NCBI GenBank assembly: GCA_964016885.1
Contig: OZ024741.1
Span: 336,598,001-336,662,000, forward strand
Origin: Eledone cirrhosa
Lineage: Eukaryota
Direction of reading: 5' to 3'
DNA length: 64,000 nucleotides
Shown: positions 3,848 to 44,540 of the stretch, in pieces
Layout of the letters: every line of letters begins with the position of its first letter
Numbering within the stretch: the first letter of the stretch is position 1
The notes under the pieces: model-generated
Database searches by the model: none
Told to the model about the DNA's origin: nothing
What the model saw: the letters and a program-made list of their open reading frames with translations, nothing else
Made by a program: the position numbers and the translations under genes

Positions 3848-4553
3848 CCATGAAGAATATCCCTATTCCACCAAGGAGACAGTACTTAAAAACTCTTATC
3901 AGGCATACAGACAGGTTCATCAAATACATTAGATGGAGAACCTTCTTCTTTGATCACCCTGATGTAGCAGCAAGCAATGATGAGAGGTTTGGTTTCAAAA
4001 TTAATAAGGCACCACCCACCAACAGACCACTTGATCCATTTGAGGAGGACTTCTTCAAAATTATCAGAAATTTCAATTTCCCTAAAGCTAACACTCCATT
4101 CTAGGCCTATTTAAAAGATGAACTGCTTAAAATGAAAAGTTCCTCCAACCTACATGTCCCCTCTGATAAAACTCAAAACCTTTATGAGGTGGACTTACCG
4201 ACCTACCAGAAGCTGGCAAAAAACACCACCATGACCTGACCACTTACAAAAAAGTAGATGAGAAGGCATTGATTGATACCAACATGGTTGGTAAAGAGAT
4301 CGCAAAAACCCTTAAAGATGAAGACTGGACTGAACCGTTAAGGGCAGAGACCCTGCACTTTACCCTTAAAGACCACAAGGCCAATTTCATTAATAAACCC
4401 TCGATTAAGCTGATTAACCCTACACACTAAGACATTGGATCAATCAGCAAGATAATCCTCGAGAAAATATTACCTTTGCTGTGTGCAGCCTTACCATTCC
4501 CACTCTGGAGCAGAATTTTAGAAGCAATCTCTTGGTTCCTGGAATTTCCTAAG
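3843..4553 (+). pseudogene. PLE (Naiad-like) ORF N-terminal fragment with stop/frameshifts
   Basis: SMKNIPIP...FIKYIRWRTFFFD...[45 protein letters not shown] are colinear with the N-terminus of the 13262-15703 protein. Confidence 0.8.
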
Positions 4554-7344: not shown

Positions 7345-7414
<70 letters not shown>

Positions 7415-7420
7415 GTGTGT

Positions 7421-7620
7421 ATATTGAGATTTGATAAAATAAATCACTGCCAATACTCAAATTGAATAATCAAGACCGTAGTGGCATGTCAAATCATATA
7501 TTTTGTCTGATGAGGACGTACTGAAAAAACAACACAGTACCTTTGAAATATAAATATATATATAATAAACTATATATTTTGATTATGTGAATATTTTTAT
7601 TTGTTAACATTTTGAATAAT
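7421..7620 (+). mobile_element. ~200-bp PLE-terminus fragment with HHR-like motif (inverted twin at 20705-20925)
   Basis: TTTTGT CTGATGA gga c GTACTG...CAGTAC c ttt GAAA TATAAATA. The stem I 3' strand is degraded. Confidence 0.6.
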
Positions 7621-7642
7621 ATATATATATATGTATATACAT

Positions 7643-9357
7643 ATGCAGTTTGGGTTTGTGTCAGGAAAAAGTACCACAGACGCTCTTTTCATTGTACGAC
7701 AACTACAGGAGAAGTACCTAGCTAAAAGTAAACCCCTATACTTAGCTTTCGTCGACTTGGAGAAGGCCTTCGACAGAGTCCCCCGTTCCATTATCTGGTG
7801 GGCTCTTAGAAAACTAGGTGTCGATGAATACAAGCCATGTATAAAGAAACAGTCAGCAAGGTTAGAATTAACAACGAATATAGTGAAGAGTTTAGTGTAA
7901 AAGTTGGTGTTCATCAGGGCTCTGTTCTTAGCCCCCTACTATTTATTATTGCCCTCCAGGCTATAACAGTGGAGTTCAAGACCGGCTGCCCATGGGAACT
8001 CCTATACGCAGATGATCTAACGCTCATAGCTGAATCAATGGCCGAGCTAGAGAAGAAATTCCAAACATGGAAGCATGGCCTAGAATCAAAAGGCCTTAAA
8101 ATTAACCTGGCTAAGACTAAAGTTCTAGTTTGTAAGAAAGAAAATAAGACGGCGGTCCCCTCCGGGAAGTGACCATGCGCAGAGTGTAGGAAAGGCGTAG
8201 GTAGAATTCCATTTTGTGTCCCAAATGCAAAATTTGGGTTCATAAAAGATGTAGTGGGATCACAGGTAAGCTAACTAAGAACATAGATTTTACATGTGGC
8301 CGGTGTTCTGGGGCAATAAGTAGCAGCAAGAGCCCACAAAATACTAGCTCATTCAACTGCGCAGAGGGTTCTATAGAAATAGTGGACAGCTTCCGTTACC
8401 TGGGTGACAAAATCAGCAGTGGGGGAGGGTGCTCTGAAAGTACAGTAGCTAGAGTCAGAACTGGGTGGAAAAAGTTCAGAGAGCTTATACCACTATTAGC
8501 CGCTAAAGGGTTCTCCCTAAAAATGAAAGGCAGGTTGTACGATGCCTGCATACGAACAGCAATGTTGCATGGCAGTGAGACCTGGGCATTGTGTGCAGAG
8601 GATATACGCAGACTAGAGAGAAACGAAGCTTGCATGCTCCGCTGGATGTGTAATAGTAATATACGTGAACGACAAAGCATAAACGAACTAAGGAAAAAAT
8701 TAGAAATAAGAGGGATCAGATGTTGTTTACTCGAGAGAAAGCTACGTTGGTATGGTCATGTGATGCGCATGAAGGACGATAGCTTTATAACAAAGTGCAG
8801 GGCAATAAAGATAGATGGTAGCCACGGAGTAGGCAGACCCAGAAAAACCTGGGACGACTTGATAAATTCCGACCTCACACACTTACACCTCTCCAAGACA
8901 ATGTCACTGGACCGAGATCTTTGGCGGTACTCAGTAATAGAGAAGACCCGCCTTACCTAAATACAAAGTAAAACCTACTACAGTCAGTAGGCATCTCTAA
9001 CAAAATACACCCCCGTCCTACCACCCCCACCCCATCCACACCGCCCCCCTTCTATGTAAAGTTATGTTGGTGCCACACCATCCAGGCCGAAACAAATGAG
9101 ATCGTGTAGGTGTCACGACAAAAAACACACAGTCCACGCTGTAATGTGGCCGTGTAGGCAACACGGTAAAAACTCCCAGACCCACACTGTAAATGTGGTT
9201 GGTGTTAGGAAGGGCATCCAACTGTAGAAAACCTGCCAGACAGTCCTATGCGAGCAAGACAATCACTCTTGCCTCAAGTGGGAAAACCCCCGTCCAAACC
9301 CATGCAAGCGTGGTACACGGACGTTAAACGATGATGATGATGATGATGATGATGATG
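7643..9357 (+). mobile_element. 5'-truncated RTE LINE (RT + PHD-like finger + C-terminus), disrupted
   Basis: [44 protein letters not shown]. Small deletion near 7827, TGA at 8170, (ATG)n tail. Confidence 0.9.
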
Positions 9358-9361
9358 ATAT

Positions 9362-9398
<37 letters not shown>

Positions 9399-9407
<9 letters not shown>

Positions 9408-9724
9408 GTGAGTTTTTTTTACAAATTGAAAATTAACCGAGGTGTCCTACATGAGTGAAAGTATAAAGAAAAAGAGATGAAATCGAAAATGCAACTGTGG
9501 TTTTTCTCACATAAGATGTGAGAAAAACCACAGACCCTCCATCTCAACTCTACTTTTGAAAAGCAGAAGAACTGCGAAACCGGTAAAGCAACCAAATAAA
9601 TATATATATTTTTTTTAAAAATAAGACTACAGTTGCATTTTCGATTTCATCTCTTTTTCTTTATACTTTCACTCGTGTAGGACACCTCGGTTATTTTTCA
9701 ATTTGTAAAAAAAACCTCACTTTC

Positions 9725-9728
<4 letters not shown>
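9399..9728. mobile_element. Foldback element with ~100-bp inverted arms in (TA)n, containing a variant HHR
   Basis: Arms 9399-9498 and 9629-9728 are near reverse complements. The internal motif is at 9551-9590. Confidence 0.8.
9551..9590 (+). ncRNA. Variant minimal hammerhead (U3-A8 core)
   Basis: tactt TTGAAAA GCAG aagaa CTGC GAAA CCGG TA aagca. Perfect stem II, palindromic ACCGGT, stem I with one mismatch. Confidence 0.55.
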
Positions 9729-9777
<49 letters not shown>

Positions 9778-9780
<3 letters not shown>

Positions 9781-10584
9781 GTAGATAAATCTACCAAGAG
9801 TTTACGGTAGTGTCCAATCCGTATGAAGAACTCAATGTATTCCGGATATCATGGAAAGAAGAGATGTAATGAAAATCCACTTTCGGTGAAAGATAAACAG
9901 TATACAGAGTCAAGATAAAATATTAAACAAATAATGAACAAACAATTTCTTATATTAAACAAAAAAAGTTCACTATTTAACGATCGTTTCTAGGGTATAT
10001 ATGTGTTATAATTGGTATGCATATTTAACAGATCTATGTACAAAATTATACAAAATTATACAAATTATCAAGATTAAATATACATACCTAACTCATATAT
10101 ACGCCGTCTTCAGAAATAATGAAGTATATTTATTGATAATAACAACAATTCAAAATATCAGTTCAAAATTGACCAATGAAAACACAAAGGGTTAAAAGCA
10201 GTTTGGTGTGTGTATATACATGTAAAAACCTTACACATATTTTACAATAATGTGTGTATAATTTGTATGTGCATACTAAAAAGATGGATGCAAACACAAA
10301 ATTTCAAGGTTAATATCTCTGTAAGCTTAATGCGCTGATAAGATACGCAATGATACTTATGGAGTCAAGCATATAAATATATTTTTTTCATACTCACACA
10401 TATCAGTATAATCACACATACATGTGCGTATATGCATAAATATACACATAACCACGAACATATAAACACACACACTCCCCCACTCACATTTATATATGTG
10501 GATATAAAATCATAAGCAAATAGAAATTAAGTCACTCACATAAAAACACTGGCACACACATTTCAAGATCAAGATACAGAAATT
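9778..10584 (-). repeat. 3' pseudo-LTR of PLE-1
   Basis: 807-bp direct repeat of 15856-16662. One mismatch noticed (9899 A vs 15977 G). Confidence 0.9.
9969..10123 (-). ncRNA. Type-I hammerhead ribozyme with long stem II (3' pLTR copy)
   Basis: Reverse complement of 20463-20617. Confidence 0.8.
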
Positions 10585-10709
10585 AGGTGGGAGGGGGGGG
10601 GGGGAGGGGTCAGTATTAGATTGTCAGACCAGACTGCCTAATATAAATGTATCTATAAATTAAGAAAAATAAAAAAATAAAAACAATAAAATATAAAAAT
10701 ATAATATAA

Positions 10710-10895
10710 TGTACATACACATACAGATATACATACACATACATACATGTACGCGCACATAGAGATATCTACACATACATACATACACACATACCTATAC
10801 AGTCATACACACACATACATTTACACGAATATATACATATACACATATAAAAAGATATAAATACACACACACTCACGCGCAACACATACACACAT

Positions 10896-10936
<41 letters not shown>

Positions 10937-11276
10937 TACGCACACACATAGACTCATATATATATATATACACATACACATACATATATATAAACATATA
11001 TATATCCACACACTCATACCACCATAAATACACATACAAACACCCACATGCATATATATATATATATATATATAACCACATACACACACGTACACATATA
11101 TATATATACATATATACACATACATATATATATATACACACACATAAAAAACAGACATGCACATATATATATATATATATATATTTCATTACTCTTATAT
11201 ATACACATAGTATATATACATACACAACCTCACTTATACACATATACACATAAGTTATATTACAATAATAATAAAG

Positions 11277-11318
<42 letters not shown>

Positions 11319-11440
11319 ATATATACACATATATATATATATACATACATACATACACATACATACATACACATAAATATATACATACATAAATACACAC
11401 ATACGAATAAAGACATATATTCACACATAGACACCCATAT

Positions 11441-11472
<32 letters not shown>

Positions 11473-11950
11473 CTATATATATATATATACACACATATAT
11501 ATATATATATATATATACACATACACACACACACACACACACAGACACACATACACACTCACATATATATATATATATATATATGTGTATGTGAGTGTGC
11601 GCAAATACACATATATATAGACACACACATACAAACACACACAAACACATACATATGCATACGTGCACACACCCACACATATATCACATAGATACGAAGA
11701 TAAACATATAAATAGAGAGACATACAAATATATACAGAACCCATATACACATACATACAAACACGCATATACATATACATACATATATACACATATATAT
11801 ATTCCTATATACAAGCATACACATACATACACATATATACATATACATACACATATACATACCACACATTCACATACACATACATATATAATACATATAT
11901 ATACATATATATACATACATATGTATGTACAATCATATATACACACTCAA
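10710..11950. repeat. Complex (TA/CA)n microsatellite array inside the PLE-1 3' UTR (mirror at ~18636-19876)
   Basis: Dinucleotide mosaic. Identical ORF-track translations appear on the opposite strand in the inverted copy. Confidence 0.9.
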
Positions 11951-13261
11951 TCTTACATTATATTTACATGCTCATATATGTATTTTTATATTTAGAAATA
12001 AATACCAAAACCTATATAGACACCCACCTACACATATATTCATACATATACGCTTACAAAAACAGATGATAATAGTATGGGGGAAAGGGGGGGTTTGGAG
12101 AAGGGGATCAAAGTAAATATATGTTTCAAGAAACATATAATATTTTCCGTATCTTAATTCAATGTATGTTCTTACATATTTTCAGTGCTAGGAAATACGA
12201 AATCTATGCATCTCAAAACAAAAAAGTAAACCATTAATCATATGTTAACTAAACCAAAGATAGTCAACATATTGATTTCCAAGGTGTAAATTAGTTAGGT
12301 TTATAATATTTGAAGCAGAATTATGAAGTCAAACAGTAGTAGATTATTAATTACAATATAACTAAATTAAAGTTAATAACGTTATGGTATCAATATTAGG
12401 AGATGAATTTAGTAATAGGGAAAAGAAACCCAAATAAAAATAAAATAAAGTATTACATCGGTAGTAGCATATAAATTATATGTTAACTAAATTAAAAATT
12501 ATATATTTATTTCAATAGTATACGTTAATTAGTATATGTTAATTAGGTATACAATACATAAAGCAGATATTGTATTTCATCAATAGCATAATATAATTAT
12601 ATGCAAATAAAAATCAAAATTAATACGCATACATATACATATACATACACATACACATACATATACATATACACTCATATATATATATATATACACATAT
12701 ATACACATATATACATATATACTCACATAAATATACATACAGATACACATACAACACACACATATATACATATACATATAGATATACATATCTTTTTCAA
12801 AAAATTGCACAGAATATATTAATTAGGTATATATCCAAAACACATCTCATTCTATGATTACATGACATTCTGCAATTCGTCTGTACAAGGATACTAATTT
12901 TAAGCAAATTAAAATTAAAGTTTTAGGTTGATTAAAACTAAAACCAAATAATAAATATATTTCCAAAATGTATATTAATTAGGTCTATAATACTAAAAAT
13001 TCTTTCTCCGTCATTGGATACATGATATTATTTTGTTATATTTTATCTGTAAAAGAATTATAATAAAAAAATTATAATAAAAGGTTAAAATAAATTAAAA
13101 TTAATCTATAAATTAAATTACTGAGTATATATTAGTAATATTTAAAGGTTTTTCAAAATTTATGATTACATAATATTTTCTCATCTGTAATAAAATATTA
13201 ATTAAATTAAATTTATAGGTTAACTAACATTTAAATTAAATTAAATTCTAGAATAATGTTA

Positions 13262-15703
13262 TTAATTAGGTTTATAATATTTAAATGTTTTTTTTAGTTT
13301 ATGATTACACGATATAATTAATTCCTGTCTTTTATTTAATAAGATATCCCTAGACTTCATTATTTCAAATAGTTCTTGGGAACATAATCTACATTCCTTT
13401 CTATTATTTTGATAAGGGGTGGCTCTTTTGAGCACACTCCAGGTCAAATCATATTTTATATTTTTATTTTTATAACTATTGATTTTTTCTGCTAGAGATG
13501 TTGTATTAGCCAGTGCGGCATTTTTAAAGCTATGTTTGTGGGTATTATACCTTGTCTTAAAATTGTTAGAGGTAGCTCCTATATATGAGCAAATAGAATC
13601 TTTAGTTTTAACATTACATTTATAGACTATGTTGTTAACAAGACAATTCCCTTTTAATGGGCAGTTTGTTTTGTTTCTACAGTTACATCCTTTCGTTAAT
13701 TCTGTATTTGAGGAGATATTATTGTTAATTTGATGTACTGGTGGTATACTTATGGTTTTCTTACATTTATATGCATTATATGCACTTATATTTTGTTTTA
13801 TGTTATTTGTTGTAGAGTATGAGAATTTAACTGTAGACCTATTTAAGATTTGATGGTATTTGTGGTTTGGCGGGAAGTTTTTCTCAAGGATATAAAAAAA
13901 TTTTTTAGCAATATTATCCTTAACTTGTAAATTAAAAGGAGCATTATACCAAGTAATTCGTCTATTACGGTTTCTATGTTGTTTATTATTTTTATTATTT
14001 TTATATGTTGTATCATGATTTTTACTAGGAGGATTAATGTTAATGATCTCACCACAACTATTTTTAGTTATATTTGTAGATTTAGGTGTTTTATCTTTTT
14101 TATTAGGAGTTTTATTATTAATATTTATTATAGTTGTATGATGAGTAGTTTTTTGAGGGTTACTATACTTTATATTAGAAGATTTAGTATTTTGGGGTAT
14201 ACTGTGGGTGGCATTTAGGTGTGTACTTTTCATTTGGTGTTTGTTGGTAATATTATGCTGTATGCTTTCAGTATTTTTAGTAGAAGGTATATACTCTAAT
14301 CTATTTTTGTGGCCACTTCTATCTAGAGCTTCATTATAAAAGGTCGCATTTTTATCAAATACATCTTGGTTAGAAGAAAGGTTAGAAATTCTAAGTGATA
14401 TATTATATGCAAGGTTTTTAAGGATAGATTTAGGGTGATTAGATTGTGAGTGTATGTAATGTAAGTTTTGGTTAGGTTTATGGTAAGGTTGGTATATACC
14501 CGTAGCTAAATCTAAAGTTATATCTAGGAAATTTACTACTTTACTTGTTTTTTCAAAAGTAATATTAAGATTATAATAGTCTTTAAGGAAAGTTCTAATA
14601 TGCTTTTTGTTTTTTTCGATTTCTGAAAGGCTAAGGTTGTTAGAAAGAAGAAGACAGTCATCACGATATAAACCACCTTTGAGGTGGGGAAAAGAGGCAT
14701 TTATGTTGAAAAGGAGAAAGAGGCCCACAAGATCAGTAATTTGGGCGGAATCGCTTGAACCCATAGTAATATCAAAAAGATTACTGTATGTGTTTCTGGT
14801 CCAGTACTCATTCTGAAATTCAATAAGTGTTTGTCTAGCATGTGTAATAATGTTAATGTCATCCGAAGTTAAATTAGATCTATTTTTAGCAAATATTAAT
14901 GCTTTGTTCAGGAGTATGGGTGATATAGAAGAATAGTAATTATCTATATCAAATTGTAGGAAAGAAGCAGAGGATTTACACCTAATATTTTTAAACCAAT
15001 TAATTACCTGGGAGGTGTTTTCCCAGAGTGGTAAAATAACGTATTTTCTTATTTGTGGGATGACTCTATCTAAAATTTTTTTGCTAATTATTCCAATATC
15101 TGATTTGGAGGGACATATAAGTCTAATAGAAGGATTAGAGTTAAAGTTAGATTTGTGATCTTTCAGGTTGAAGTGTGGTCTTTTCAATGCCAAAGGTTCA
15201 GTTCTATCTTCAATATTTAGTTTTTTTACTATGTTGTGTGTTTTGTTGTTGATGTTGGTGAGTGACACATTATTAGATTTTTTATAATTTTTTCTGAGTT
15301 CTTTAAATATGAACTCATTATAATGTTCAATATCCATATGATACAAGTTACCAGTTTTGTCCGAGTGGACATGGATTTTTTTAGACTTTTTTAGGTCCAA
15401 TAGGGTAGAATCAAGGTCCTTTTGAAAGACGGATTTGTACTTTTTAAATTTGAGGTGTTTAATTAAATTAAAAAGGTCTTTCTCGAAGTCTTCAAGTAAA
15501 AAGTTGTGTGGTGGATTCTTGTAAGTGTTGAAATCATACATATATTTCCGATCTGCCTGTTTAGATTTTCTATCGAAGTGGTAGGCTCTCCATCTAACCC
15601 TTCTGATAAAATTATTAGTTTTCTGAATCATAAGGAGTAAGAAGTCGTCCTTAGAAGGTATTGGTATGTTTTTTAAGGAGGTTCCTAAATATTGTTTTTC
15701 CAT
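13262..15703 (-). CDS. Intact Penelope-like (Naiad-like) reverse transcriptase + GIY-YIG endonuclease, 813 aa from first ATG
   Basis: SDKTGN, FLQFDIDNYYSSI, ITMGSSDSAQITD, GGLYRDDCL, FLDITL, PYHKP, WYNAPF, linker CNCRNKTNCPLKGNCL, IVYKC...YIGAT..FKTRY..HK.SF, CRLC..E. No stops. The ORF-track start at 15724 is a TTG. Confidence 0.93.
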   Translation of the reverse strand: MEKQYLGTSLKNIPIPSKDDFLLLMIQKTNNFIRRVRWRAYHFDRKSKQADRKYMYDFNTYKNPPHNFLLEDFEKDLFNLIKHLKFKKYKSVFQKDLDSTLLDLKKSKKIHVHSDKTGNLYHMDIEHYNEFIFKELRKNYKKSNNVSLTNINNKTHNIVKKLNIEDRTEPLALKRPHFNLKDHKSNFNSNPSIRLICPSKSDIGIISKKILDRVIPQIRKYVILPLWENTSQVINWFKNIRCKSSASFLQFDIDNYYSSISPILLNKALIFAKNRSNLTSDDINIITHARQTLIEFQNEYWTRNTYSNLFDITMGSSDSAQITDLVGLFLLFNINASFPHLKGGLYRDDCLLLSNNLSLSEIEKNKKHIRTFLKDYYNLNITFEKTSKVVNFLDITLDLATGIYQPYHKPNQNLHYIHSQSNHPKSILKNLAYNISLRISNLSSNQDVFDKNATFYNEALDRSGHKNRLEYIPSTKNTESIQHNITNKHQMKSTHLNATHSIPQNTKSSNIKYSNPQKTTHHTTIININNKTPNKKDKTPKSTNITKNSCGEIININPPSKNHDTTYKNNKNNKQHRNRNRRITWYNAPFNLQVKDNIAKKFFYILEKNFPPNHKYHQILNRSTVKFSYSTTNNIKQNISAYNAYKCKKTISIPPVHQINNNISSNTELTKGCNCRNKTNCPLKGNCLVNNIVYKCNVKTKDSICSYIGATSNNFKTRYNTHKHSFKNAALANTTSLAEKINSYKNKNIKYDLTWSVLKRATPYQNNRKECRLCSQELFEIMKSRDILLNKRQELIISCNHKLKKTFKYYKPN

Positions 15704-15855
15704 TGTGATATGGATGATGGACAATTGAAAGAGCTCAACTAAATGTATATGGGTTTACAAAATCATACATATATATATGTTTATACATAAATATAAAATT
15801 AATACACACATACAGTACAAAAATACGAATATTTCCGTGAAAATAGGAGCAAAAT

Positions 15856-16662
15856 TATGTAGATAAATCTACCAAGAGTTTACGGTAGTGTCCAATCCGT
15901 ATGAAGAACTCAATGTATTCCGGATATCATGGAAAGAAGAGATGTAATGAAAATCCACTTTCGGTGAAAGATAAACGGTATACAGAGTCAAGATAAAATA
16001 TTAAACAAATAATGAACAAACAATTTCTTATATTAAACAAAAAAAGTTCACTATTTAACGATCGTTTCTAGGGTATATATGTGTTATAATTGGTATGCAT
16101 ATTTAACAGATCTATGTACAAAATTATACAAAATTATACAAATTATCAAGATTAAATATACATACCTAACTCATATATACGCCGTCTTCAGAAATAATGA
16201 AGTATATTTATTGATAATAACAACAATTCAAAATATCAGTTCAAAATTGACCAATGAAAACACAAAGGGTTAAAAGCAGTTTGGTGTGTGTATATACATG
16301 TAAAAACCTTACACATATTTTACAATAATGTGTGTATAATTTGTATGTGCATACTAAAAAGATGGATGCAAACACAAAATTTCAAGGTTAATATCTCTGT
16401 AAGCTTAATGCGCTGATAAGATACGCAATGATACTTATGGAGTCAAGCATATAAATATATTTTTTTCATACTCACACATATCAGTATAATCACACATACA
16501 TGTGCGTATATGCATAAATATACACATAACCACGAACATATAAACACACACACTCCCCCACTCACATTTATATATGTGGATATAAAATCATAAGCAAATA
16601 GAAATTAAGTCACTCACATAAAAACACTGGCACACACATTTCAAGATCAAGATACAGAAATT
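15856..16662 (-). repeat. 5' pseudo-LTR of PLE-1
   Basis: Direct repeat of 9778-10584, upstream of the ORF. Confidence 0.9.
16047..16201 (-). ncRNA. Type-I hammerhead ribozyme (5' pLTR copy)
   Basis: Same motif as 9969-10123, shifted by 6078. Confidence 0.8.
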
Positions 16663-19113
16663 TTAAGGATAATATTGCTAAAAAATTTTTTTATATCCTT
16701 GAGAAAAACTTCCCGCCAAACCACAAATACCATCAAATCTTAAATAGGTCTACAGTTAAATTCTCATACTCTACAACAAATAACATAAAACAAAATATAA
16801 GTGCATATAATGCATATAAATGTAAGAAAACCATAAGTATACCACCAGTACATCAAATTAACAATAATATCTCCTCAAATACAGAATTAACGAAAGGATG
16901 TAACTGTAGAAACAAAACAAACTGCCCATTAAAAGGGAATTGTCTTGTTAACAACATAGTCTATAAATGTAATGTTAAAACTAAAGATTCTATTTGCTCA
17001 TATATAGGAGCTACCTCTAACAATTTTAAGACAAGGTATAATACCCACAAACATAGCTTTAAAAATGCCGCACTGGCTAATACAACATCTCTAGCAGAAA
17101 AAATCAATAGTTATAAAAATAAAAATATAAAATATGATTTGACCTGGAGTGTGCTCAAAAGAGCCACCCCTTATCAAAATAATAGAAAGGAATGTAGATT
17201 ATGTTCCCAAGAACTATTTGAAATAATGAAGTCTAGGGATATCTTATTAAATAAAAGACAGGAATTAATTATATCGTGTAATCATAAACTAAAAAAAACA
17301 TTTAAATATTATAAACCTAATTAATAACATTATTCTAGAATTTAATTTAATTTAAATGTTAGTTAACCTATAAATTTAATTTAATTAATATTTTATTACA
17401 GATGAGAAAATATTATGTAATCATAAATTTTGAAAAACCTTTAAATATTACTAATATATACTCAGTAATTTAATTTATAGATTAATTTTAATTTATTTTA
17501 ACCTTTTATTATAATTTTTTTATTATAATTCTTTTACAGATAAAATATAACAAAATAATATCATGTATCCAATGACGGAGAAAGAATTTTTAGTATTATA
17601 GACCTAATTAATATACATTTTGGAAATATATTTATTATTTGGTTTTAGTTTTAATCAACCTAAAACTTTAATTTTAATTTGCTTAAAATTAGTATCCTTG
17701 TACAGACGAATTGCAGAATGTCATGTAATCATAGAATGAGATGTGTTTTGGATATATACCTAATTAATATATTCTGTGCAATTTTTTGAAAAAGATATGT
17801 ATATCTATATGTATATGTATATATGTGTGTGTTGTATGTGTATCTGTATGTATATTTATGTGAGTATATATGTATATATGTGTATATATGTGTATATATA
17901 TATATATATGAGTGTATATGTATATGTATGTGTATGTGTATGTATATGTATATGTATGCGTATTAATTTTGATTTTTATTTGCATATAATTATATTATGC
18001 TATTGATGAAATACAATATCTGCTTTATGTATTGTATACCTAATTAACATATACTAATTAACGTATACTATTGAAATAAATATATAATTTTTAATTTAGT
18101 TAACATATAATTTATATGCTACTACCGATGTAATACTTTATTTTATTTTTATTTGGGTTTCTTTTCCCTATTACTAAATTCATCTCCTAATATTGATACC
18201 ATAACGTTATTAACTTTAATTTAGTTATATTGTAATTAATAATCTACTACTGTTTGACTTCATAATTCTGCTTCAAATATTATAAACCTAACTAATTTAC
18301 ACCTTGGAAATCAATATGTTGACTATCTTTGGTTTAGTTAACATATGATTAATGGTTTACTTTTTTGTTTTGAGATGCATAGATTTCGTATTTCCTAGCA
18401 CTGAAAATATGTAAGAACATACATTGAATTAAGATACGGAAAATATTATATGTTTCTTGAAACATATATTTACTTTGATCCCCTTCTCCAAACCCCCCCT
18501 TTCCCCCATACTATTATCATCTGTTTTTGTAAGCGTATATGTATGAATATATGTGTAGGTGGGTGTCTATATAGGTTTTGGTATTTATTTCTAAATATAA
18601 AAATACATATATGAGCATGTAAATATAATGTAAGATTGAGTGTGTATATATGATTGTACATACATATGTATGTATATATATGTATATATATGTATTATAT
18701 ATGTATGTGTATGTGAATGTGTGGTATGTATATGTGTATGTATATGTATATATGTGTATGTATGTGTATGCTTGTATATAGGAATATATATATGTGTATA
18801 TATGTATGTATATGTATATGCGTGTTTGTATGTATGTGTATATGGGTTCTGTATATATTTGTATGTCTCTCTATTTATATGTTTATCTTCGTATCTATGT
18901 GATATATGTGTGGGTGTGTGCACGTATGCATATGTATGTGTTTGTGTGTGTTTGTATGTGTGTGTCTATATATATGTGTATTTGCGCACACTCACATACA
19001 CATATATATATATATATATATATGTGAGTGTGTATGTGTGTCTGTGTGTGTGTGTGTGTGTGTATGTGTATATATATATATATATATATATGTGTGTATA
19101 TATATATATATAG

Positions 19114-19145
<32 letters not shown>

Positions 19146-19267
19146 ATATGGGTGTCTATGTGTGAATATATGTCTTTATTCGTATGTGTGTATTTATGTA
19201 TGTATATATTTATGTGTATGTATGTATGTGTATGTATGTATGTATATATATATATATGTGTATATAT

Positions 19268-19309
<42 letters not shown>

Positions 19310-19649
19310 CTTTATTATTATTGTAATATAACTTATGTGTATATGTGTATAAGTGAGGTTGTGTATGTATATATACTATGTGTATATATAAGAGTAATGA
19401 AATATATATATATATATATATATGTGCATGTCTGTTTTTTATGTGTGTGTATATATATATATGTATGTGTATATATGTATATATATATATGTGTACGTGT
19501 GTGTATGTGGTTATATATATATATATATATATATGCATGTGGGTGTTTGTATGTGTATTTATGGTGGTATGAGTGTGTGGATATATATATGTTTATATAT
19601 ATGTATGTGTATGTGTATATATATATATATGAGTCTATGTGTGTGCGTA

Positions 19650-19690
<41 letters not shown>

Positions 19691-20671
19691 ATGTGTGTAT
19701 GTGTTGCGCGTGAGTGTGTGTGTATTTATATCTTTTTATATGTGTATATGTATATATTCGTGTAAATGTATGTGTGTGTATGACTGTATAGGTATGTGTG
19801 TATGTATGTATGTGTAGATATCTCTATGTGCGCGTACATGTATGTATGTGTATGTATATCTGTATGTGTATGTACATTATATTATATTTTTATATTTTAT
19901 TGTTTTTATTTTTTTATTTTTCTTAATTTATAGATACATTTATATTAGGCAGTCTGGTCTGACAATCTAATACTGACCCCTCCCCCCCCCCCCTCCCACC
20001 TAATTTCTGTATCTTGATCTTGAAATGTGTGTGCCAGTGTTTTTATGTGAGTGACTTAATTTCTATTTGCTTATGATTTTATATCCACATATATAAATGT
20101 GAGTGGGGGAGTGTGTGTGTTTATATGTTCGTGGTTATGTGTATATTTATGCATATACGCACATGTATGTGTGATTATACTGATATGTGTGAGTATGAAA
20201 AAAATATATTTATATGCTTGACTCCATAAGTATCATTGCGTATCTTATCAGCGCATTAAGCTTACAGAGATATTAACCTTGAAATTTTGTGTTTGCATCC
20301 ATCTTTTTAGTATGCACATACAAATTATACACACATTATTGTAAAATATGTGTAAGGTTTTTACATGTATATACACACACCAAACTGCTTTTAACCCTTT
20401 GTGTTTTCATTGGTCAATTTTGAACTGATATTTTGAATTGTTGTTATTATCAATAAATATACTTCATTATTTCTGAAGACGGCGTATATATGAGTTAGGT
20501 ATGTATATTTAATCTTGATAATTTGTATAATTTTGTATAATTTTGTACATAGATCTGTTAAATATGCATACCAATTATAACACATATATACCCTAGAAAC
20601 GATCGTTAAATAGTGAACTTTTTTTGTTTAATATAAGAAATTGTTTGTTCATTATTTGTTTAATATTTTAT
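16663..20671 (+). repeat. Inverted 5'-truncated PLE-1 copy (GIY-YIG coding end 16663-17324, 3' UTR, partial pLTR)
   Basis: Reverse complement of 9915-13923 with a constant coordinate sum. Confidence 0.92.
20463..20617 (+). ncRNA. Type-I hammerhead ribozyme with 116-nt stem II
   Basis: TTCATTATTT CTGAAGA [GTATATATG...GGTATGTATATTTAA ... TTAAATATGCATACC...CATATATAC] GAAA CGATCG TT AAATAGTGAA. 10-bp stem I, palindromic ACGATCGT, predicted cleavage after 20607. Confidence 0.82.
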
Positions 20672-20674
20672 ATT

Positions 20675-20704
<30 letters not shown>

Positions 20705-20725
<21 letters not shown>

Positions 20726-20925
20726 TATTAAAAATGTTAACAAAAAAAAAATATTCACATAATCAAAATATATATTTAATTATATATATATATATATTTC
20801 AAAGGTACTGTGTTGTTTTTTCAGTACGTCCTCATCAGACAAAATATATGATTTGACATACCACTACGGTCTTGATTATTCAATTCGAGTATTGGCAGTG
20901 ATTTATTTTATAAAATCTCAATATA
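20705..20925 (-). mobile_element. Inverted twin of the 7421-7620 PLE-terminus fragment
   Basis: TTTCAAAGGTACTGTGTTGTTTTTTCAGTACGTCCTCATCAGACAAAATATATG is the reverse complement of 7495-7548. Confidence 0.7.
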
Positions 20926-20945
20926 TATATGTACATATATATATA

Positions 20946-23243
20946 TCATCATCATCATCATCATCAATGTTTAACGTCCGTGTTCCACGCTTGCATGGGT
21001 TTGGACGGGGGTTTTCCCACTTGAGGCAAGAGTGATTGTCTTGCTCGCATAGGACTGTCTGGCAGGTTTTCTACAGTTGGATGCCCTTCCTAACACCAAC
21101 CACATTTACAGTGTGGGTCTGGGAGGTTTTTACCGTGTTGCCTACACGGCCACATTACAGCGTGGACTGTGTGTTTTTTTGTCGTGACACTTACACGATC
21201 TCATTTGTTTCGGCCTGGATGGTGTGGCACCAACATAACTTTATATAGAAGGGGGCGGTGTGGATGGGGTGTGGGTGGTGGGATGGGGGTGTATTTTGTT
21301 AGAGATGCCTACTGACTGTAGTAGGTTTTACTTTGTATTTAGGTAAGGCGGGTCTTCTCTATTACTGAGTACTGCCAAAGGTCTCGGTCCAGTGACATTG
21401 TCTTGGTGAGGTGTAAGTGTGTGAGGTCGGAGTTTATCAGCTCGTCCCAGGTTTTTCTGGGTCTGCCTATTCCGTGGCTACCGTCTATCTTTATTGCCCT
21501 GCACTTTGTTATACAGCTATCGTCCTTCATGCGCATCACGTGACCATACCAACGTAGCCTTCTCTCTAGTAAACAACATCTGATCCCTCTTATTTCTAAT
21601 TTTTTCCTTAGTTCGTTTATGCTTTGTCGTTCACGTATATTACTATTACACATCCAGCGAAGCATGCAAGCTTCGTTTCTCTCTAGTCTGCGTATATCCT
21701 CTGCACACAATGCCCAGGTCTCACTGCCATGCAACATTGCTGTTCGTATGCAGGCATCGTACAGCCTGCCTTTCATTTTTAGGGAGAACCCTTTAGCGGC
21801 TAATAGTGGTATAAGCTCTCTGAACTTTTTCCACCTAGTTCTGACTCTAGCTACTGTACTTTCAGAGCACCCTCCCCCACTGCTGATTTTGTCACCCAGG
21901 TAACGGAAGCTGTCCACTATTTCTATAGAACCCTCTGCGCAGTTGAAAGAGCTAGTATTTTGTGGGCACTTGCTGCTACTTATTGCCCCAGAACACCGGC
22001 CACATGTAAAATCTATGTTCTTAGTTAGCTTACCTGTGATCCCACTACATCTTTTATGCACCCAAACTTTGCATTTGGGACACAAAATGGAATTTCTACC
22101 TTCGCCTTTCCTACACTTTGCACATGGCCACTTCCCGGAGGGGACCGCCGCCTTATTTTCTTTCTTACAAACTAGAACTTTAGTCTTAGCCAGGTTAATT
22201 TTAAGGCCTTTTGATTCTAGGCCGTGCTTCCATGTTTGGAATTTCTTCTCTAGCTCGGCCATTGATTCAGCTATGAGCGTTAGATCATCTGCGTATAGGA
22301 GTTCCCATGGGCAGCCGGTCTTGAACTCCACTGTTATAGCCTGGAGGGCAATAATAAATAGTAGGGGGCTAAGAACACCAACTCTTCACTATATTCGTTG
22401 TTAATTCTAACCTTGCTGACTGTTTCTTTATACATGGCTTGTATAGCTCTCACAAGCCATTCATCAACACCTAGTTTTCTAAGAGCCCACCAGATAATGG
22501 AACGGGGGACTCTGTCGAAGACCTTCTCCAAGTCGACGAAAGCTAAATATAGGGGTTTACTTTTAGCTAGGTACTTCTCCTGTAGTTGTCGTACAATGAA
22601 AAGAGCGTCTATGGTACTTTTGCCTGACACAAATCCGAACTGCATTTCATCTAGATCAATTCGCTCTCTGATTAGTTGCGCTATTACTTTTTCCGTGACC
22701 TTCATGACCTGGTCGATTAATTTAATGCCTCTATAGTTACTCCTATCTAGGGCATCTCCTTTACCCTTATAACAGTTAACGATAATGCTGCTACGCCAGT
22801 CCTTCGGAACAACCCCATTCTGTATGACTTGGTTGACTATCCGGGTGACCATGGTGTGTCCCACCGTACAAGATGCCTTCAGCATCTCGGCAACTATTTC
22901 CGAAGGCCCAGCCGCCTTGCCTGTCTTCATATCTTTGATTACCTTACTTATTATACTACCCTCGACTAACACTGCTGGTCCCTCTATTGGGTCGATGTGG
23001 GGGAGACTGTCTTTCTCCCATTTATTCTCCTCATTTAGTAGCCTTTCATAGTGACACTTCCAAGCTACCTTCTTATCGGCGTCGGTGATGGCAAGTACGC
23101 CGTCATCGTTAAGTACACACTTCTCCCCGACAATATCACTGTTTTCCTTGACACATTGCCTAGCAATCCTGAACACCTCACGTTTTTGGTCCTCACGTTG
23201 TAGAACATGCTTGAACTTTCTTTCCTCTGCTTCCCTTCTTGCG
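20946..23243 (-). mobile_element. 5'-truncated RTE LINE, frameshifted by a small deletion near 22380
   Basis: ORFs 22334-23176 and 21339-22331 carry RT motifs (NYRGIKL, FVDLEK.FDRVPR, YADD). 3' UTR and (ATG)n tail present. Confidence 0.9.
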
Positions 23244-23320
23244 TGTGTATATATATATCTATATATATATGTATATATATATATATGTGTGTGTGTATAT
23301 ATATATATATATGTATATAT

Positions 23321-23402
<82 letters not shown>

Positions 23403-23417
23403 ATATTTATATATATA

Positions 23418-24105
23418 TCATCATCATCATCGTTTAACGTCCATATTCCACGCTTGCATGGGTTTGGATGGGAGTTTTCCCACTTGAGGCAAGAGTGGTT
23501 GTCTGGCTCGCATAGGACTTTCTGGCGGGTTTTCTACAGCTGGATGCCCTTCCTAACACCAACCACATTTACAGTGTGGAACTGGGAGGTTTTTACCGTG
23601 TTACCTACACGGCCACTTTACAGCGTGGACTGTGTGTTTTTTGTCGTGACACCTACACGACCTCATTTATTTCGGCCTGGATGTTGTGGTACCAACATAA
23701 CTTTACATTGAAAGGGGCGGTGTGGATGGGCTGGGGGTAGTGGGATGGGGGTGTATTTTGTTAGAGGTGCCTACTGACTGTAGTAGGTTTTACTTTGTAT
23801 TTAGGTAAGGCGGGTCTTCTCTATTACTGAGTACCGCCAAAGATCTCGGTCCAGTGACATTGTCTTGGAGAGGTGTAAGTGTGTGAGGTCGGAATTTATC
23901 AAGTCGTCCCAGGTTTTTCTAGGTCTGCCTACTCCGTGGCTACCATCTATTTTTATTGCCCTGCACTTTTTTATACAGCTGTCGTCTTTCATGCGCATCA
24001 CGTGACCATACCAACGTAGCCTTCTCTCGAGTAAACAACATCTGATCCCTCTTTTTTCTAATTTTTCCCTTAGTTCGTTAATGCTTTGCGTTCACGTATA
24101 TTACT
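23418..24105 (-). mobile_element. RTE LINE 3' fragment
   Basis: [11 protein letters not shown]...GRPRKTW...KTRLT* plus the shared 3' UTR. Confidence 0.85.
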
Positions 24106-24677: not shown

Positions 24678-26045
24678 ATCATCATCATCATCATCACCGT
24701 TTTACGTCCGTTCTTCCACGCTAGCATGGGTTAGACGGGTTGTCCTGTTGTGGGCAGTGTCTGGTCGGCTGACCATGCCTTGCTCATACAGGAACTGATC
24801 TGGCTTGATTTCTACAGCTGGATGCCCTTCCTAACACCAACCTCATTTACAGTGAGTGCTGGGTGCTTTTTCGTGGCGCCTACACGTCCACTTTACAGTG
24901 TGGGCTGGGTGCTTTTTTGCCGTGGCACCTCCACGACCACCTTGCGGTGGGGGGGGGGGGGGCATATTGTTTATATGCTTCAGCATGTACCCATGGGAGG
25001 TCGGGTACCCTGTATTACTGCGTGACGCCAGAAGTCACGGTCGTGTGTCATTGACTTTGAGAGGTGTAGTTGGGTAAGGTCGGCTTTTATCACCTCATCC
25101 CAAGTCATCTTGGGTCTCCCCACTCCGCGGTTTCCATCAACTTCTAGTGCTCTGCACCTTTTTATGCAGCTGTCATCCTTCATACGCATCACATGTCCAT
25201 ACCAGCGTAACCGCCTCTCCTGCACGCAGCATTTGATTCCTCTTATGCTCAGTCTCTCTCTCAATTCATTTATGCTTTGTCGTTCACGTATATTACTGTT
25301 ACACATCCATCGGAGCATGCAGGCTTCGTTTCTCTCTAATCTACGTAAGTCTTCCACCTTCAGCGCCCAGGTCTCACTACCATGCAACATCGCTGTTCGG
25401 ATACACGCATCATACAGTCTGCCTTTCATTCTGAGGGAGAAGCCTTTTGCAGCTAGCAGTGGTAGTAGTTCCCTAAACTTCTTCCATCCCGTTCTTACCC
25501 TAGTTATTGTACTTTCTGAGCACCCACCTCCGTTGCTAATTCGGTCACCTAGGTAGCAGAAGCTGTCTACTGTTTCTACAGGGCCCTCCCAGAGATTGGT
25601 GGTACTTGTTTCCTGTGGCTGTTTGCTTGCTGTTTCAGCACAGCTGCTGCATGTGAATCCTACATCCTTAATTAAGCTTCCTGAGATCCCGCTACATCTC
25701 TTGTGTACCCATTGTTTGCATTTGGGGCAAAGAATGGAGTTCCTACCTACACCTTTCCTACATACTGAGCAAGGCCATTTCCCTGAGGGGATCTGGGTTC
25801 TGTTTTCTCGTCTACTTATAAGGACCTTAGTCTTTGTCATGTTGACTTTGAGGCCCTTTCTCTCTAGTCCCTGCTTCCAGGTTTGGAATTTATTCTCTAG
25901 TTCTACCATAGATTCAGCTATGAGTGCGAGGTCATCAGCATACAGGAGTTCCCATGGGCATCCGGTCTTAAACTCCTCCGTTATTGCCTGCAGGACTATG
26001 ATGAACAGGAGAGGGCTAAGAACAGAGCCCTGGTGGACCCCAACA
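24678..26045 (-). mobile_element. 5'-truncated RTE LINE (second subfamily)
   Basis: [23 protein letters not shown]...[17 protein letters not shown]; (ATG)n tail. Confidence 0.88.
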
Positions 26046-26073
26046 TATATATATATATATATGTATGTATGTG

Positions 26074-26108
<35 letters not shown>

Positions 26109-26300
26109 GTAAGTATATATATATATATTTATATATACATATACATATATACATATATATATATGTATGTATATATATATATATACATTTATATATGTAT
26201 ATATATATATATACATATATACATATATATATGTATGTATATATAGCGGCGATGAATTAGTTTTGCGAGGTTTTTTATATGAAATCGTGTGTCGAAACAG

Positions 26301-27069: not shown

Positions 27070-27191
27070 GGAGGTGAGTTTTATTGTAGCACAATAAAGC
27101 AATGCAAATATCGGATAAGTAGCACTCTGCAGTTTGTAGGACTGGAGTATGAATAAATATAAGATCAAAAGATGGTTAAAAGAGTTCCAAG

Positions 27192-27262
27192 TATTTTATT
27201 ATGCGTATTTCAAAAATAAATATCATCATGGGATGATATCTGCGTTCTCATCAGATAAAATA
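27192..27262 (-). ncRNA. Type-I hammerhead ribozyme at PLE-2 3' end
   Basis: TATTTTAT CTGATGA gaac GCAGATATCATC ccat GATGATATTTAT tttt GAAA TACGCA TA ATAAAATA. Perfect 8-bp stem I. Confidence 0.8.
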
Positions 27263-28432
27263 GGGAGACATGATATGAAGCTTAAAAAACACTTGTGAGC
27301 AGTGAAGTTTTAAATCAACATAGGAAAAATAAACTAAGATGGATAAATGAGATTGAGGAAAATATAGGGAGGGGGGTAGGAAAAGGTAAAGAAGAGGAAG
27401 AAAGAAAAATAAAGTTGGTGGGGGACGAGTATAAGAAAGAAGAATGATAGAGGAGGAGAAATGAGTGATAGAGATAGAGAAATAACCTTTACAACTGAGA
27501 AAACATTGTCTCACAGAGAGAAATTAAAAAACCGTTGGAAGATAATAGATAATTTAAAAGATTTTGAAATTAAAAGTTAATGAGGTTTATGCATGAAGAA
27601 AAAAGAATTAAGAATAGTATTAAATTAAGGTTTGTATATTCAAGGGTCTAATAATATGTGCGAAAAAGAATTTATTAATATGTATCTTTAAAATAAAAAT
27701 ATTAATGATATTAAGGATATAATGTGAAAGAAGGAGAAGAATAAATGAATTATGAACTTAGGAATTAGTTAGGGTTTAAGTTTGTTTTTGTGCATTGTAA
27801 TATGTAAACGTAAATAGTAGGTTTAAAAGTAGCACGGAAGGAGAGAAGAAAAAAGAAAGTTTAAAGAAGAAAAATATCTAACGTCAAAAAGTATACATGT
27901 TTACGAAAATTTTCTAAAAGTAATATTATAATATATTAAAAAAGGAATTAGTTAGGGTTTAAGTTTGATTTTATGTATTGTAATATGTAAAAGTAAAAGT
28001 AAATAGTAGGTTTAAAACGAGCACGGAAGGAGAGAAGAAAAAGAAAAATTTAAGGAAGAAAAAATATCTAACGTTAAAAAGTATATATGTTTACGAAAAT
28101 CTTCTAATGGTAATATTATAATATATTTTTTAAAATATAGTTTTAATGGCCAATAATATGAGGAAAAATGGAAAATGCTGTAGTGAGTAATAATATGAAT
28201 TGAGAAGTAATTGGAATGAAAAAGTATAAATTAGAGATTAGAAATTAAAAAAGAAAAAAGGAAGAAAGGAAAATGATAAAGAAGAAAGATAGGGGATCAT
28301 AACAACATAGAATGAGTAAATTGTATTATATAATATATAATACTGAAATAAGGTAGAAAGATGGGTATATTTGTAAAAGATATAAAAGCCTTTGAGAAAG
28401 AGAAGATTTTAAACTAATTAGGTATTGAGATA

Positions 28433-30790: not shown

Positions 30791-31553
30791 TCCCTATCCC
30801 GAACATGTAATCTCTGCCTAGCCGAGAAATTTACCATTATATCTAATTTCAATTCTATAATAAATAGACGCATGGATTAATTTTCGCTCTGCTTGCATAA
30901 ATCCCATAGAACATTCCATATAGTATACAGCTAATATCTCAATACCTAATTAGTTTAAAATCTTTTTCTCAAAGGCTTTTATATCTTTTACAAATATACC
31001 CATCTTTCTACCTTATTTCAGTATTATATATTATATAATACAATTTACTCATTCTATGTCGTTATGATCCCCTATCTTTCTCCTTTATCATTTTCCTTTC
31101 TTCCTTTTTTCTTTTTTAATTTCTAATCTCCAATTTATACTTTTTCTTCCCAATTACTTCTCAATTCATATTATTACTCACTACAGCATTTTCCATTTTT
31201 CCTCATATTATTGGCCATTAAAACTATATTTTTAAAAATATATTATAATATTACCATTAGAAGATTTTCGTAAATATATACTTTTTAACGTTAGATATAT
31301 TTTCTTCCTTAAATTTTTCTTTTTCTTCTCTCCTTCCGTGCTCGTTTTAAACCTACTATTTACTTTTACTTTTACATATTACAATACATAAAATCAAACT
31401 TAAACCCTACCTAATTCCTTTTTAAATATATTATAATATTACCATTAGAAAATTTTCGTAAACATATATACTTTTTGACGTTAGATTTTTTCACATGTTG
31501 ATTTAAAACTTCAATGTTCACACGTGTTTTTTAAGCTTCATATCACGTCTCCC

Positions 31554-31624
31554 TATTTTCTCCGATGAGAACGCAGATATCATCCCATGATGATATTTGT
31601 TTTTGAAATACGCATAATAAAATA
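31554..31624 (+). ncRNA. Mutated hammerhead in the inverted PLE-2 copy
   Basis: TATTTTCT CCGATGA ... GAAA TACGCA TA ATAAAATA, with a U4C core change. Confidence 0.55.
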
Positions 31625-31650
31625 CTTGGAACTCTTTTAACCATCTTTTG

Positions 31651-31727
<77 letters not shown>

Positions 31728-43511: not shown

Positions 43512-43562
<51 letters not shown>

Positions 43563-43644
43563 GTTATTCCGGGTTGAATCGGAGGTAACCACAGTAAGTA
43601 AGGTACTCAATACATAGCAGAGTATAAAAGTTTTAATATAGATG

Positions 43645-43695
43645 AGATTCTACAGGACTAGAACTGTTTCATTCATTAGAAATCATCAGGAATCT
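43645..43695 (-). ncRNA. Type-I hammerhead ribozyme at PLE-3 3' end
   Basis: Reverse complement of 50176-50226. Confidence 0.75.
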
Positions 43696-44272
43696 GGGTA
43701 TCAAAAAATAAAAATGGTATTTATAGGTCTCTACAAGTGGTAGGAGAGGGTGGGGAGTGGGATGGGTGTAGGTCATTGGTTGATAGAAAAGGGAATTCAT
43801 TAAAAGATAATTCTACAAAGCTATAGTTTATTTTTATTTATTTATGTTTTTAGAGTAACAAGGGCAGACAGAATTCTATAAACAGGTTCCGGATGGCATA
43901 CCATTCCTTGTCATTAAGTTTCTCTTAAGCAAACAGATGTCTATAAGATCAGTGGGGGGTCAGTCATGGTCGATAGAATTAAAGAAAAGGGAGATTCTTT
44001 AAAAGCTAAAATCATTAAGGTTCTACTAAGTGACAAAGGTCTAGAGAATTCTGTAGACAGATTCAAAATACTGAGTGCATATCTTACAATTATCTTCGAA
44101 CTTCTCTTAAACTAATCAACTATATGCCAAAAATCAACAGACACATTCACAAAAAAACATACTCACTCACACACTCACGCGCAACCATAAACACACACAC
44201 AAACACATGTACACACATAAAAACACACACACATATATATAAATATATTCATATACATACATATACATACAC

Positions 44273-44335
<63 letters not shown>

Positions 44336-44540
44336 TATATATACATACACACACACATACATATATATACACTCACACACACATATATACACATATAAAT
44401 ACACTCACACATATACATACAAACACAAATATACATGTGTATACAAATACACACAAATACATATAGATATATATACATATATATACATATATATACACAT
44501 ATACACATATATATATATATATATATATACATACATACAA

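Follow-up and report, generated by a model that had tools for sequence, protein, structure and literature searches.

The window analysed here is a stretch of 64,000 nucleotides (nt) of the Eledone cirrhosa genome (assembly GCA_964016885.1, contig OZ024741.1, positions 336,598,001 to 336,662,000), and our subject within it is a Penelope-like element (PLE) inserted head to head between (TA)n tracts (Table 1). The element encodes a reverse transcriptase (RT) of telomerase-like type joined within one open reading frame (ORF) to a GIY-YIG endonuclease (EN), as in EN+ PLEs, carries hammerhead ribozyme motifs and has, in the leader ahead of the ORF, two bulged hairpins that recur among its relatives. 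Both ends of the insertion lie a few nucleotides from one of these hairpins, and comparison of sequences makes it, on balance, probable that the hairpins position the RT, one start each, on RNA that is itself likely uncut at the hammerhead. Published work is cited from those portions of each source that were available to us.

Table 1. Features of the element and its flanks, in window positions.
Feature	Position	Strand	Remarks
Sense arm	9778..16662	-	6885 nt: one 6078-nt unit plus an 807-nt partial copy upstream
5' pseudo-long terminal repeat (pseudo-LTR)	15856..16662	-	5'-truncated copy of the 3' end; 807 bp, 1 mismatch vs 9778-10584
3' terminal repeat	9778..10584	-	
Inverted 5'-truncated arm	16663..20671	+	Reverse complement of 9915-13923; 4009 bp, perfect
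Tail	9778..9914	-	About 137 nt, left end only; stretch between the two inferred RT start sites
Leader hairpin 1	15908..15988	-	5+ bp stem, 2-nt UU bulge, 81 nt overall
Leader hairpin 2	15733..15850	-	Same bulged stem, 118 nt overall
Second copy of hairpin 1, within tail	9830..9910	-	
ORF, telomerase-like RT + GIY-YIG	13262..15703	-	813 aa; D269, YRDD 363-366, low-complexity insert 497-587, CxCx5C linker
Linker + GIY-YIG domain	13265..13699	-	Y711, Y724, G726, R735, H739, E794, N807
Long 3' untranslated region (UTR)	9979..13261	-	3283 nt from stop to cut; own (TA)/(TG)-rich tract about 10670-12050
Hammerhead 1, type I	16047..16201	-	Stem I 10 bp, 116-nt stem II arm, palindromic stem III; predicted cut after 16057
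Hammerhead 2, identical to 1	9969..10123	-	Predicted cut after 9979
Hammerhead 3, identical, inverted arm	20463..20617	+	Predicted cut after 20607
Predicted competing hairpin	16006..16057	-	Captures stem I 3' strand and scissile base; not conserved in relatives
Left (TA)n target flank	9727..9779	.	No target-site duplication discernible
Right (TA)n target flank	20672..20726	.	

The insertion and its protein

The direct repeats are offset by 6078 nt and their sole mismatch, at 9899, is a CpG-type transition. The original prediction, made from the letters alone, had described an RT and GIY-YIG ORF between two 807-bp direct repeats, in a recent, autonomous-looking PLE with a hammerhead in each pseudo-LTR; the repeats, the intact frame and the hammerheads were all found again. 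It had also ended the element at 16662, too early, as the insertion continues to 20671 in a 4009-bp inverted copy with a third hammerhead. This arm meets the pseudo-LTR 5' to 5' at 16662/16663 without microhomology and asymmetrically, the equivalent of 10584 being fused to the equivalent of 13923, and the outer ends of both arms run into (TA)n. To judge by one mismatch in about 4800 compared bases, the insertion is a very recent event.

The element thus shows a partial tandem pseudo-LTR, an adjoining inverted 5'-truncated copy and a tail at one end, which is the layout published for PLEs, where the tail usually measures 30-40 bp (PMC8557442). An inverted copy that is 100% identical over 4009 bp, microsatellites included, could suggest an artefact of assembly or fold-back. 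We consider this extremely improbable: the junction is asymmetric, the inverted arm breaks off within the element, at hairpin 1, and runs into a (TA)n flank of its own, and the layout, besides being the published form (PMC8557442), is seen again in relatives and in two further families of the window. The sequencing runs listed for the stretch include no RNA run, and 14 of these 18 runs contain part of it.

The unit is long, at 6078 nt against 2386-2847 nt in 11 relatives, as is the distance from stop codon to cut, at 3283 nt against 80-558 nt in 48 relatives (there counted from the nuclease match); two other families in the window also have long stop-to-cut distances (1233 and 2953). Within the 3' UTR, the stretch 10670-12050 holds 13 runs of (TA)5 or longer, the element's own type of target, and the element could therefore insert into itself and build tandems.

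The frame 13262-15754 on the minus strand is open from stop to stop over 830 codons, from which residues are numbered here, and its first ATG, at 15703, gives the 813-residue protein. A search of 8000 candidates gave 329 homologues, and 120 of these (median 707 aa) are listed and used for comparison. Catalytic residues agree with 112-120 of the 120 listed homologues, D269 and YRDD of the RT being kept in 119-120 and the GIY-YIG residues of Table 1 in 112-118; S275 is unusual, with P in 113. The AlphaFold model (pLDDT 84) finds its best structural matches in telomerase RTs (Foldseek E 1e-8), and alignment to a telomerase RT (VIA) gave Z 16.2 and a root-mean-square deviation (rmsd) of 4.5 over 304 aligned residues. 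Folded separately, the C-terminal domain matches I-TevI (Z 9.6, rmsd 2.3, 89 of 92 residues) and other GIY-YIG nucleases. Sequence searches of Pfam, PHROGs and PDB did not recognise the protein itself; PF01541 matches 14 of 63 aligned homologue domains at E up to 1 (best 2.4e-05), the window's own domain not among them. A locus search with the single protein as query found none, and viral contigs gave none.

By its sequence motifs the element belongs to the Hydra clade of PLEs. The marks given for this clade are RW[K/R], DKT, CxCx5C and CxxC..E..N..CxH, with no CCHH (Craig et al. 2021, PMC8557442). Here DKT stands for DKG at residue 132 (T in 103 and S in 16 of the 120 listed homologues), the N-terminal RWK motif reads RWR, a common variant (K in 78 of 120, R in 34), the CxCx5C linker lies at 690-698, and CxxC and CxH surround the conserved E and N at 788-818. 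A CCHH motif, whose layout we took in part from the published alignment, is absent from the EN, which has no CxxC between IVY and YIG and a single conserved H. The (TA)n insertion site and the type-I hammerhead are further Hydra-clade traits, and compared by eye with the rows of Fig. S7 (PMC8557442) the protein follows Hydra, not Neptune, Poseidon or Nematis. In a quick tree of 29 rows, a comparison among relatives run without labelled Hydra, Neptune, Poseidon or Naiad references, it falls together with a protein from Argonauta and two further elements of the window (9 rows, SH-aLRT 100), which makes an octopod the likely host.

With Hydra-1_Obim and Hydra-1_Ajap the element shares a single RT-EN ORF and the motifs RW[K/R], DKT, CxCx5C and CxxC..E..N..CxH, and with the clade a type-I hammerhead near the 3' end, a (TA)n target and, in one listed family, the inverted 5' copy (PMC8557442). 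Size sets it apart: the listed units measure 1.1-3.0 kb (PMC8557442), and the element, with its 3.3-kb microsatellite-rich 3' UTR, does not follow the clade's trend towards less than 3 kb, which is descriptive and not diagnostic. Its 116-nt stem II arm, its low-complexity insert of about 90 aa and hairpins of 81 and 118 nt are likewise unlike the listed Hydra elements.

The clades offered beforehand as candidates (Naiad, Neptune and Poseidon) do not fit. Naiad/Chlamys, an initial guess of ours, was rejected because the domain order differs, the EN being C-terminal and not N-terminal, and hammerheads are present. Neptune and Penelope/Poseidon were rejected since the protein has neither DKG, nor CCHH in the EN, nor the Cx2-5CxxC linker of Neptune. 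Identity as a non-LTR retrozyme was rejected on the 813-aa ORF and 6-kb unit, against a non-coding tandem unit of 170-400 nt.

Twin hairpins in the leader and the ends of the insertion

Between the cut site and the ATG, relatives of the element carry two bulged hairpins of the pattern GCUC-stem-(UU/UC/UA bulge)-GAGC-ACU. Twin hairpins occur in 27 of 32 distinct relative leaders and in this element (28 matched by pattern, one being dropped as spurious), 4 more matched once, and none of 3200 shuffled leaders matched twice. Strict matches numbered 118 in the 91 related loci that we compared, of which 105 lie no more than 260 nt downstream of a hammerhead or upstream of the start of an ORF; shuffled loci gave 1. 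The distance from hammerhead to hairpin 1 is mostly 40-54 nt (25 of 27). This element keeps both stems, with expanded loops.

The stem itself points to a folded structure. With a 2-nt bulge the fifth pair forms in all 59 distinct hairpins (38 C-G, 20 U-A, 1 U-G), whereas bulges of 0, 1 and 3 nt allow it in 1, 0 and 5. For pairs 5-8, 155 of 188 cells are paired, where shuffling gives 99.9 +/- 5.4 (maximum 117 over 2000 column shuffles, which keep the relatedness among hairpins), and the first stem pair covaries, with G-C to U-A swaps among relatives and A-U in this element. Sequence varies hardly at all in the outer stem and flank, and TA lies just upstream of 52 of the 59 hairpins, a control window giving 18 of 59.

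The ends of insertions fall beside these hairpins. Counted from the cut, the sense arm of this element ends at +201, 6 nt short of hairpin 2, and the inverted arm at +64 to +67, some 2-5 nt short of hairpin 1. Among 25 aligned termini, 13 lie 1-6 nt before a hairpin and the other 12 are uninformative (9 with a diverged or unrelated reference, 1 contig end, 1 doubtful hairpin and 1 that is not a terminus). Relative ends with a TA run number 27; a single hairpin is present in 8 of them, none in 19 and both in 0. The 8 stop 32-43 nt past their hairpin, at the point where hairpin 2 would start (gap 34-60). A short end is combined with a long one in 7 of 8 informative head-to-head pairs: those of the three window families (one read by eye), two in locus L083, and one each in L088 and L089.

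The same motif can be found, unremarked, in independently curated Hydra consensus sequences (PMC8557442): Hydra-1_Ajap starts 2 nt before hairpin 1 and has both hairpins, and Hydra-2_Amil ends after hairpin 1. The words 'hairpin' and 'stem-loop' have zero uses in the Craig 2021 supplement, and paired leader hairpins are undescribed in the literature we searched, which reached little subscription literature and in which the accessible portions of PMC6765202, PMC2377424, PMC6431247 and PMC13282606 make no mention of them. The twin hairpins appear to be the new part of what we report, and the hammerhead layout is the known part.

That the twin motifs act instead as DNA or cDNA, the nuclease recognising its own pseudo-LTR or a folded cDNA strand setting the ends, appears improbable. 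The tail of the D. virilis element is needed for nuclease recognition of DNA (as cited in PMC11167929), the near-invariance of outer stem and flank would suit such recognition, and the asymmetry between G-U and A-C is too weak to name the folding strand. Yet the covariation of pairs, together with a 2-nt bulge that is fixed and confined to one side, speaks for a folded single strand, and the ends of PAc, a Poseidon element from Anolis, map to RT starts on RNA (PMC11167929).

Hammerheads and the template for copying

The cores of the two minus-strand hammerheads span 16191-16057 and 10113-9979, with the predicted cut following GUU. Full type-I hammerheads 6078 nt apart had been predicted; their location, the CUGANGA, GAAA and UH core motifs and the three helices stand, whereas the canonical form does not, given a C.A at position 10.1/11.1 and a 116-nt stem II arm between the core halves. 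A second mismatch at the fourth pair and a palindromic stem III of 2-3 bp are also noncanonical. Our own descriptor found 92 hammerheads, 71 of them distinct, in 60 of the 91 related loci; in the 71 the arm measures 10-31 nt, and position 10.1/11.1 is G-C in 29, U.U in 23, other in 19 and C.A in 0. The usual G10.1-C11.1 pair is conserved but not obligatory in the Hydra clade and absent here; C..A was seen in one published PLE hammerhead, PLE-X1_cBra, and a literature search for data on mismatches at 10.1/11.1 found none. Compared with the minimal PLE hammerheads, the element shares type I, presence in both repeats and a short palindromic stem III suited to dimer cleavage, and differs in its C.A, 116-nt arm and 10-bp stem I from a consensus with G10.1-C11.1 and a helix II of 6-8 bp (PMC4209133).

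The motif folds well: a 161-nt fragment has a fold z of -5.3 (0 of 200 shuffles as good), a core-compatible fold of the 155-nt fragment lies within 1.3 kcal/mol of the minimum, and the stem II arm folds at -38.8 against -18.6 +/- 3.1 kcal/mol when shuffled (0 of 500 equal). The first four pairs of stem II are weak (pairing P at most 0.06), and with at least 50 nt of 3' flank a predicted 12-bp hairpin displaces stem I by 7.7 kcal/mol. A conserved anti-ribozyme switch was considered and rejected, as stem I was also lost with 71 of 100 shuffled flanks and in 0 of 13 well-folding relatives, and a Wilcoxon test over 64 gave p 0.53; in these models the displacement is a feature of this element's family only. 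Because of the C.A mismatch and the predicted displacement, self-cleavage by this hammerhead is uncertain. Rfam gave nothing at gathering score in the window and no hammerhead model among 11 weak pseudo-LTR matches, a short relative also scoring far below threshold, and a 15-nt hammerhead pattern searched in genome contigs found prokaryotic matches, which we take as chance.

The original prediction proposed that the transcript is cut to a unit-length, possibly circular RNA. Both the layout and this idea are already known, and the layout is ordinary: 11 relatives show a same-family hammerhead-ORF-hammerhead order at 2386-2847 nt spacing, hammerheads with dimer-type stem III were described in both pseudo-LTRs by Cervera and de la Pena (2014), and the same paper proposed cleavage, ligation to circles and reverse transcription of more than one unit (PMC4209133).

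The reading that we favour would proceed as follows. Transcription from the pseudo-LTR would read through the tandem junction and leave the hammerhead and hairpins 1 and 2 3' of a full unit; two protein molecules would bind, one per hairpin; the GIY-YIG domain would cut both strands of a (TA)n tract; and each DNA end would pair with a UA-rich patch 4-10 nt 5' of its hairpin and prime cDNA. The two cDNAs, here 6885 and 4009 nt, would then join 5' to 5', giving a head-to-head insertion with a one-ended tail. Twin hairpins are a likely explanation of the Penelope 'tail', which measures about 137 nt here, 55-83 in relatives and 30-40 for PAc (PMC11167929). The hammerhead may be a slow cutter, dependent on a dimer or on protein, whose cleavage the copying step would not require.

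PAc offers the closest biochemical comparison (Frangieh et al. 2024, PMC11167929). In vitro its protein, modelled as a dimer, cleaves both strands of the DNA and extends each of them, and it works on uncut RNA with no need of hammerhead cleavage. With our element it shares an AT-rich target and a pair of internal RT starts that lie 3' of the hammerhead and delimit the tail. PAc starts inside the ORF, at an AC-rich stem-loop without target homology (PMC11167929), whereas the inferred starts here lie in a noncoding leader, each before its own hairpin and beside UA-rich patches able to pair with (TA)n.

A start that omits its own hairpin leaves a copy like this one without hairpin 2 downstream of its 3' hammerhead, and the long arm therefore needs a leader after the 3' UTR, be it from an uncut tandem, a re-joined circle or a precise jump. 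The transcript had been expected to be cut to a unit-length, possibly circular template. A linear unit is not supported as the only template: the insertion has both its ends 3' of the cut, 64-67 and 201 nt past it, and all three cut sites are crossed exactly, with no scar. Alone, such a unit would yield only 64-201 nt. Template jumping between linear units, in which the RT would start at a hairpin, reach the 5' end within 64-201 nt and jump to the 3' end of another unit, would give the same product as a circle, and end-to-end jumping is known for R2-type RTs. Jumps, however, usually leave small additions or deletions, and with three crossings all exact we regard this route as very improbable.

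A circle deserves more weight, though we still hold it unlikely. Dimeric hammerheads would cut, a host ligase would close the 6078-nt unit, and the RT would run round past its own start to make the pseudo-LTR. Since the start leaves its own hairpin out of the copy, joining the ends would restore hairpin 2 downstream of the 3' hammerhead, and the sense arm amounts to 1.13 units beginning at hairpin 2. Two molecules cofold as a dimeric hammerhead at -100.6 against -85.8 kcal/mol for two monomers, hammerheads were found in 60 of the 91 loci, the spacing of hammerhead and hairpin is fixed, and animal retrozymes, which are related to pseudo-LTRs (bioRxiv 2026.07.22.740005), form circles in vivo by type-I hammerheads (PMC7229834). 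Those retrozymes share the tandem type-I hammerheads but are noncoding units of 170-400 nt whose circles have been seen in vivo (PMC7229834; bioRxiv 2026.07.22.740005), whereas our element is autonomous, 6 kb long and known from sequence. Hammerhead mutants left PAc insertion in vitro undiminished and no RNA-seq reads ended at the site (PMC11167929), Naiads without canonical hammerheads still give tandem, inverted and tailed insertions (PMC8557442), and minimal PLE hammerheads cleave poorly even as dimers (PMC4209133). To these may be added the C.A found in 0 of 71 relatives, the weak first stem II pairs, the predicted loss of stem I, and a cut RNA that would lack a cap and have five upstream AUGs. 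As for the lone mismatch between the repeats, it does not tell a circle from a linear template. An uncut transcript is favoured over a circle mainly because hammerhead-less Naiads build the same structures and PAc ignores cleavage.

Several points weigh against the uncut, hairpin-positioned start that we favour. The hairpin pattern was derived from the same loci in which it was counted, a longer loop limit was permitted for this element, and the relatives are short-read contigs that may collapse repeats and belong to related families that are not independent. Leader sequence, not an end, accounts for two of the 27 TA runs (L031, L091), one head-to-head pair (L083 5791/9522) has two short ends, and end positions blur by about 3 nt because template and target are both TA-rich. 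PAc showed no difference between the strands in where RT starts, and its start lies within one AC-rich stem-loop (PMC11167929). For the uncut route a tandem parent with 7.2 kb or more of unbroken element is required, and none is present in the window; that route would also give a clade-wide hammerhead no role in making the template. In its favour, one relative contig, L014, is a full tandem.

The wider proposition, that Hydra-clade elements replicate through a hammerhead-made coding RNA circle on which a protein dimer primes one cDNA per hairpin at a (TA)n break, we hold to be a shade more doubtful than the circle route for this element. If true, rolling copying would make pseudo-LTR, inverted arm and tail in one event, and a 6-kb circle would be made by a hammerhead with a 116-nt stem II arm.

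Neighbouring elements and implications

The window is rich in other elements. A second Hydra-like family occupies 27070-31663, with an open frame at 28433-30082 (-) that has a frame break upstream, a hammerhead (cut 27200, 36-nt stem II arm) and an inverted arm that ends near 31655 and has a mutated hammerhead core. A third, at 43561-50242, is head-to-head, with an ORF remnant at 46604-47878 (-), a long microsatellite 3' UTR, hammerheads at 43651 (-) and 50220 (+) with an 8-nt loop III and, just upstream of each, an extra hairpin of the same type (43728-43747 and 50124-50143). The stretches 1574-1790 and 3850-4538 hold a fold-back fragment, its hammerhead cores decayed, and what is left of the N-terminal part of a fourth Hydra-like ORF, and 50342-50700 is a short fold-back with a hammerhead (cut 50583, 28-nt stem II arm) that resembles the second family. 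A 247-bp inverted repeat (20700-20946 / 7399-7644, 93%) beside the right end of the insertion, with a minus-strand CUGAUGA core, is likely another decayed PLE end. By the left end, a fold-back element in (TA)n at 9358-9770 is related to 2029-2261 and has no hammerhead core. Copies of a long interspersed nuclear element (LINE) lie at 52049-54442, 21339-23533, 24980-26128 and 8205-8960; they encode RVT_1 and then a PHD finger, some have (GAT)n tails, and we take them to be RTE-like.

Among the related loci, L079-L091 are Hydra-type elements in contigs filed as bacterial genomes, probably through host contamination of bins. L083 and L089 are nests of several families, and together with L037 and L041 they carry a distinct type of hammerhead, with an extra A after the core, a stem III of 4-6 nt, (TA)n ends and no GCUC hairpin nearby, possibly from another clade or a nonautonomous family.

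The hairpins bear on how PLEs choose their starts, on the origin of the one-ended tail and on the role of the hammerhead. They are a concrete, mutable cis-element that predicts both insertion ends across dozens of families. They also make the choice between a circle and a tandem transcript cleanly testable, since without re-joining a single copy is unable to remake its own long end. In this element both the hammerhead and the hairpins have tolerated large insertions, and standard descriptors would therefore miss such motifs. In the portions of the literature on PLEs that we consulted, we found no biochemistry of the Hydra clade; this enlarged variant of it, being intact, is a candidate for in vitro work on the clade.

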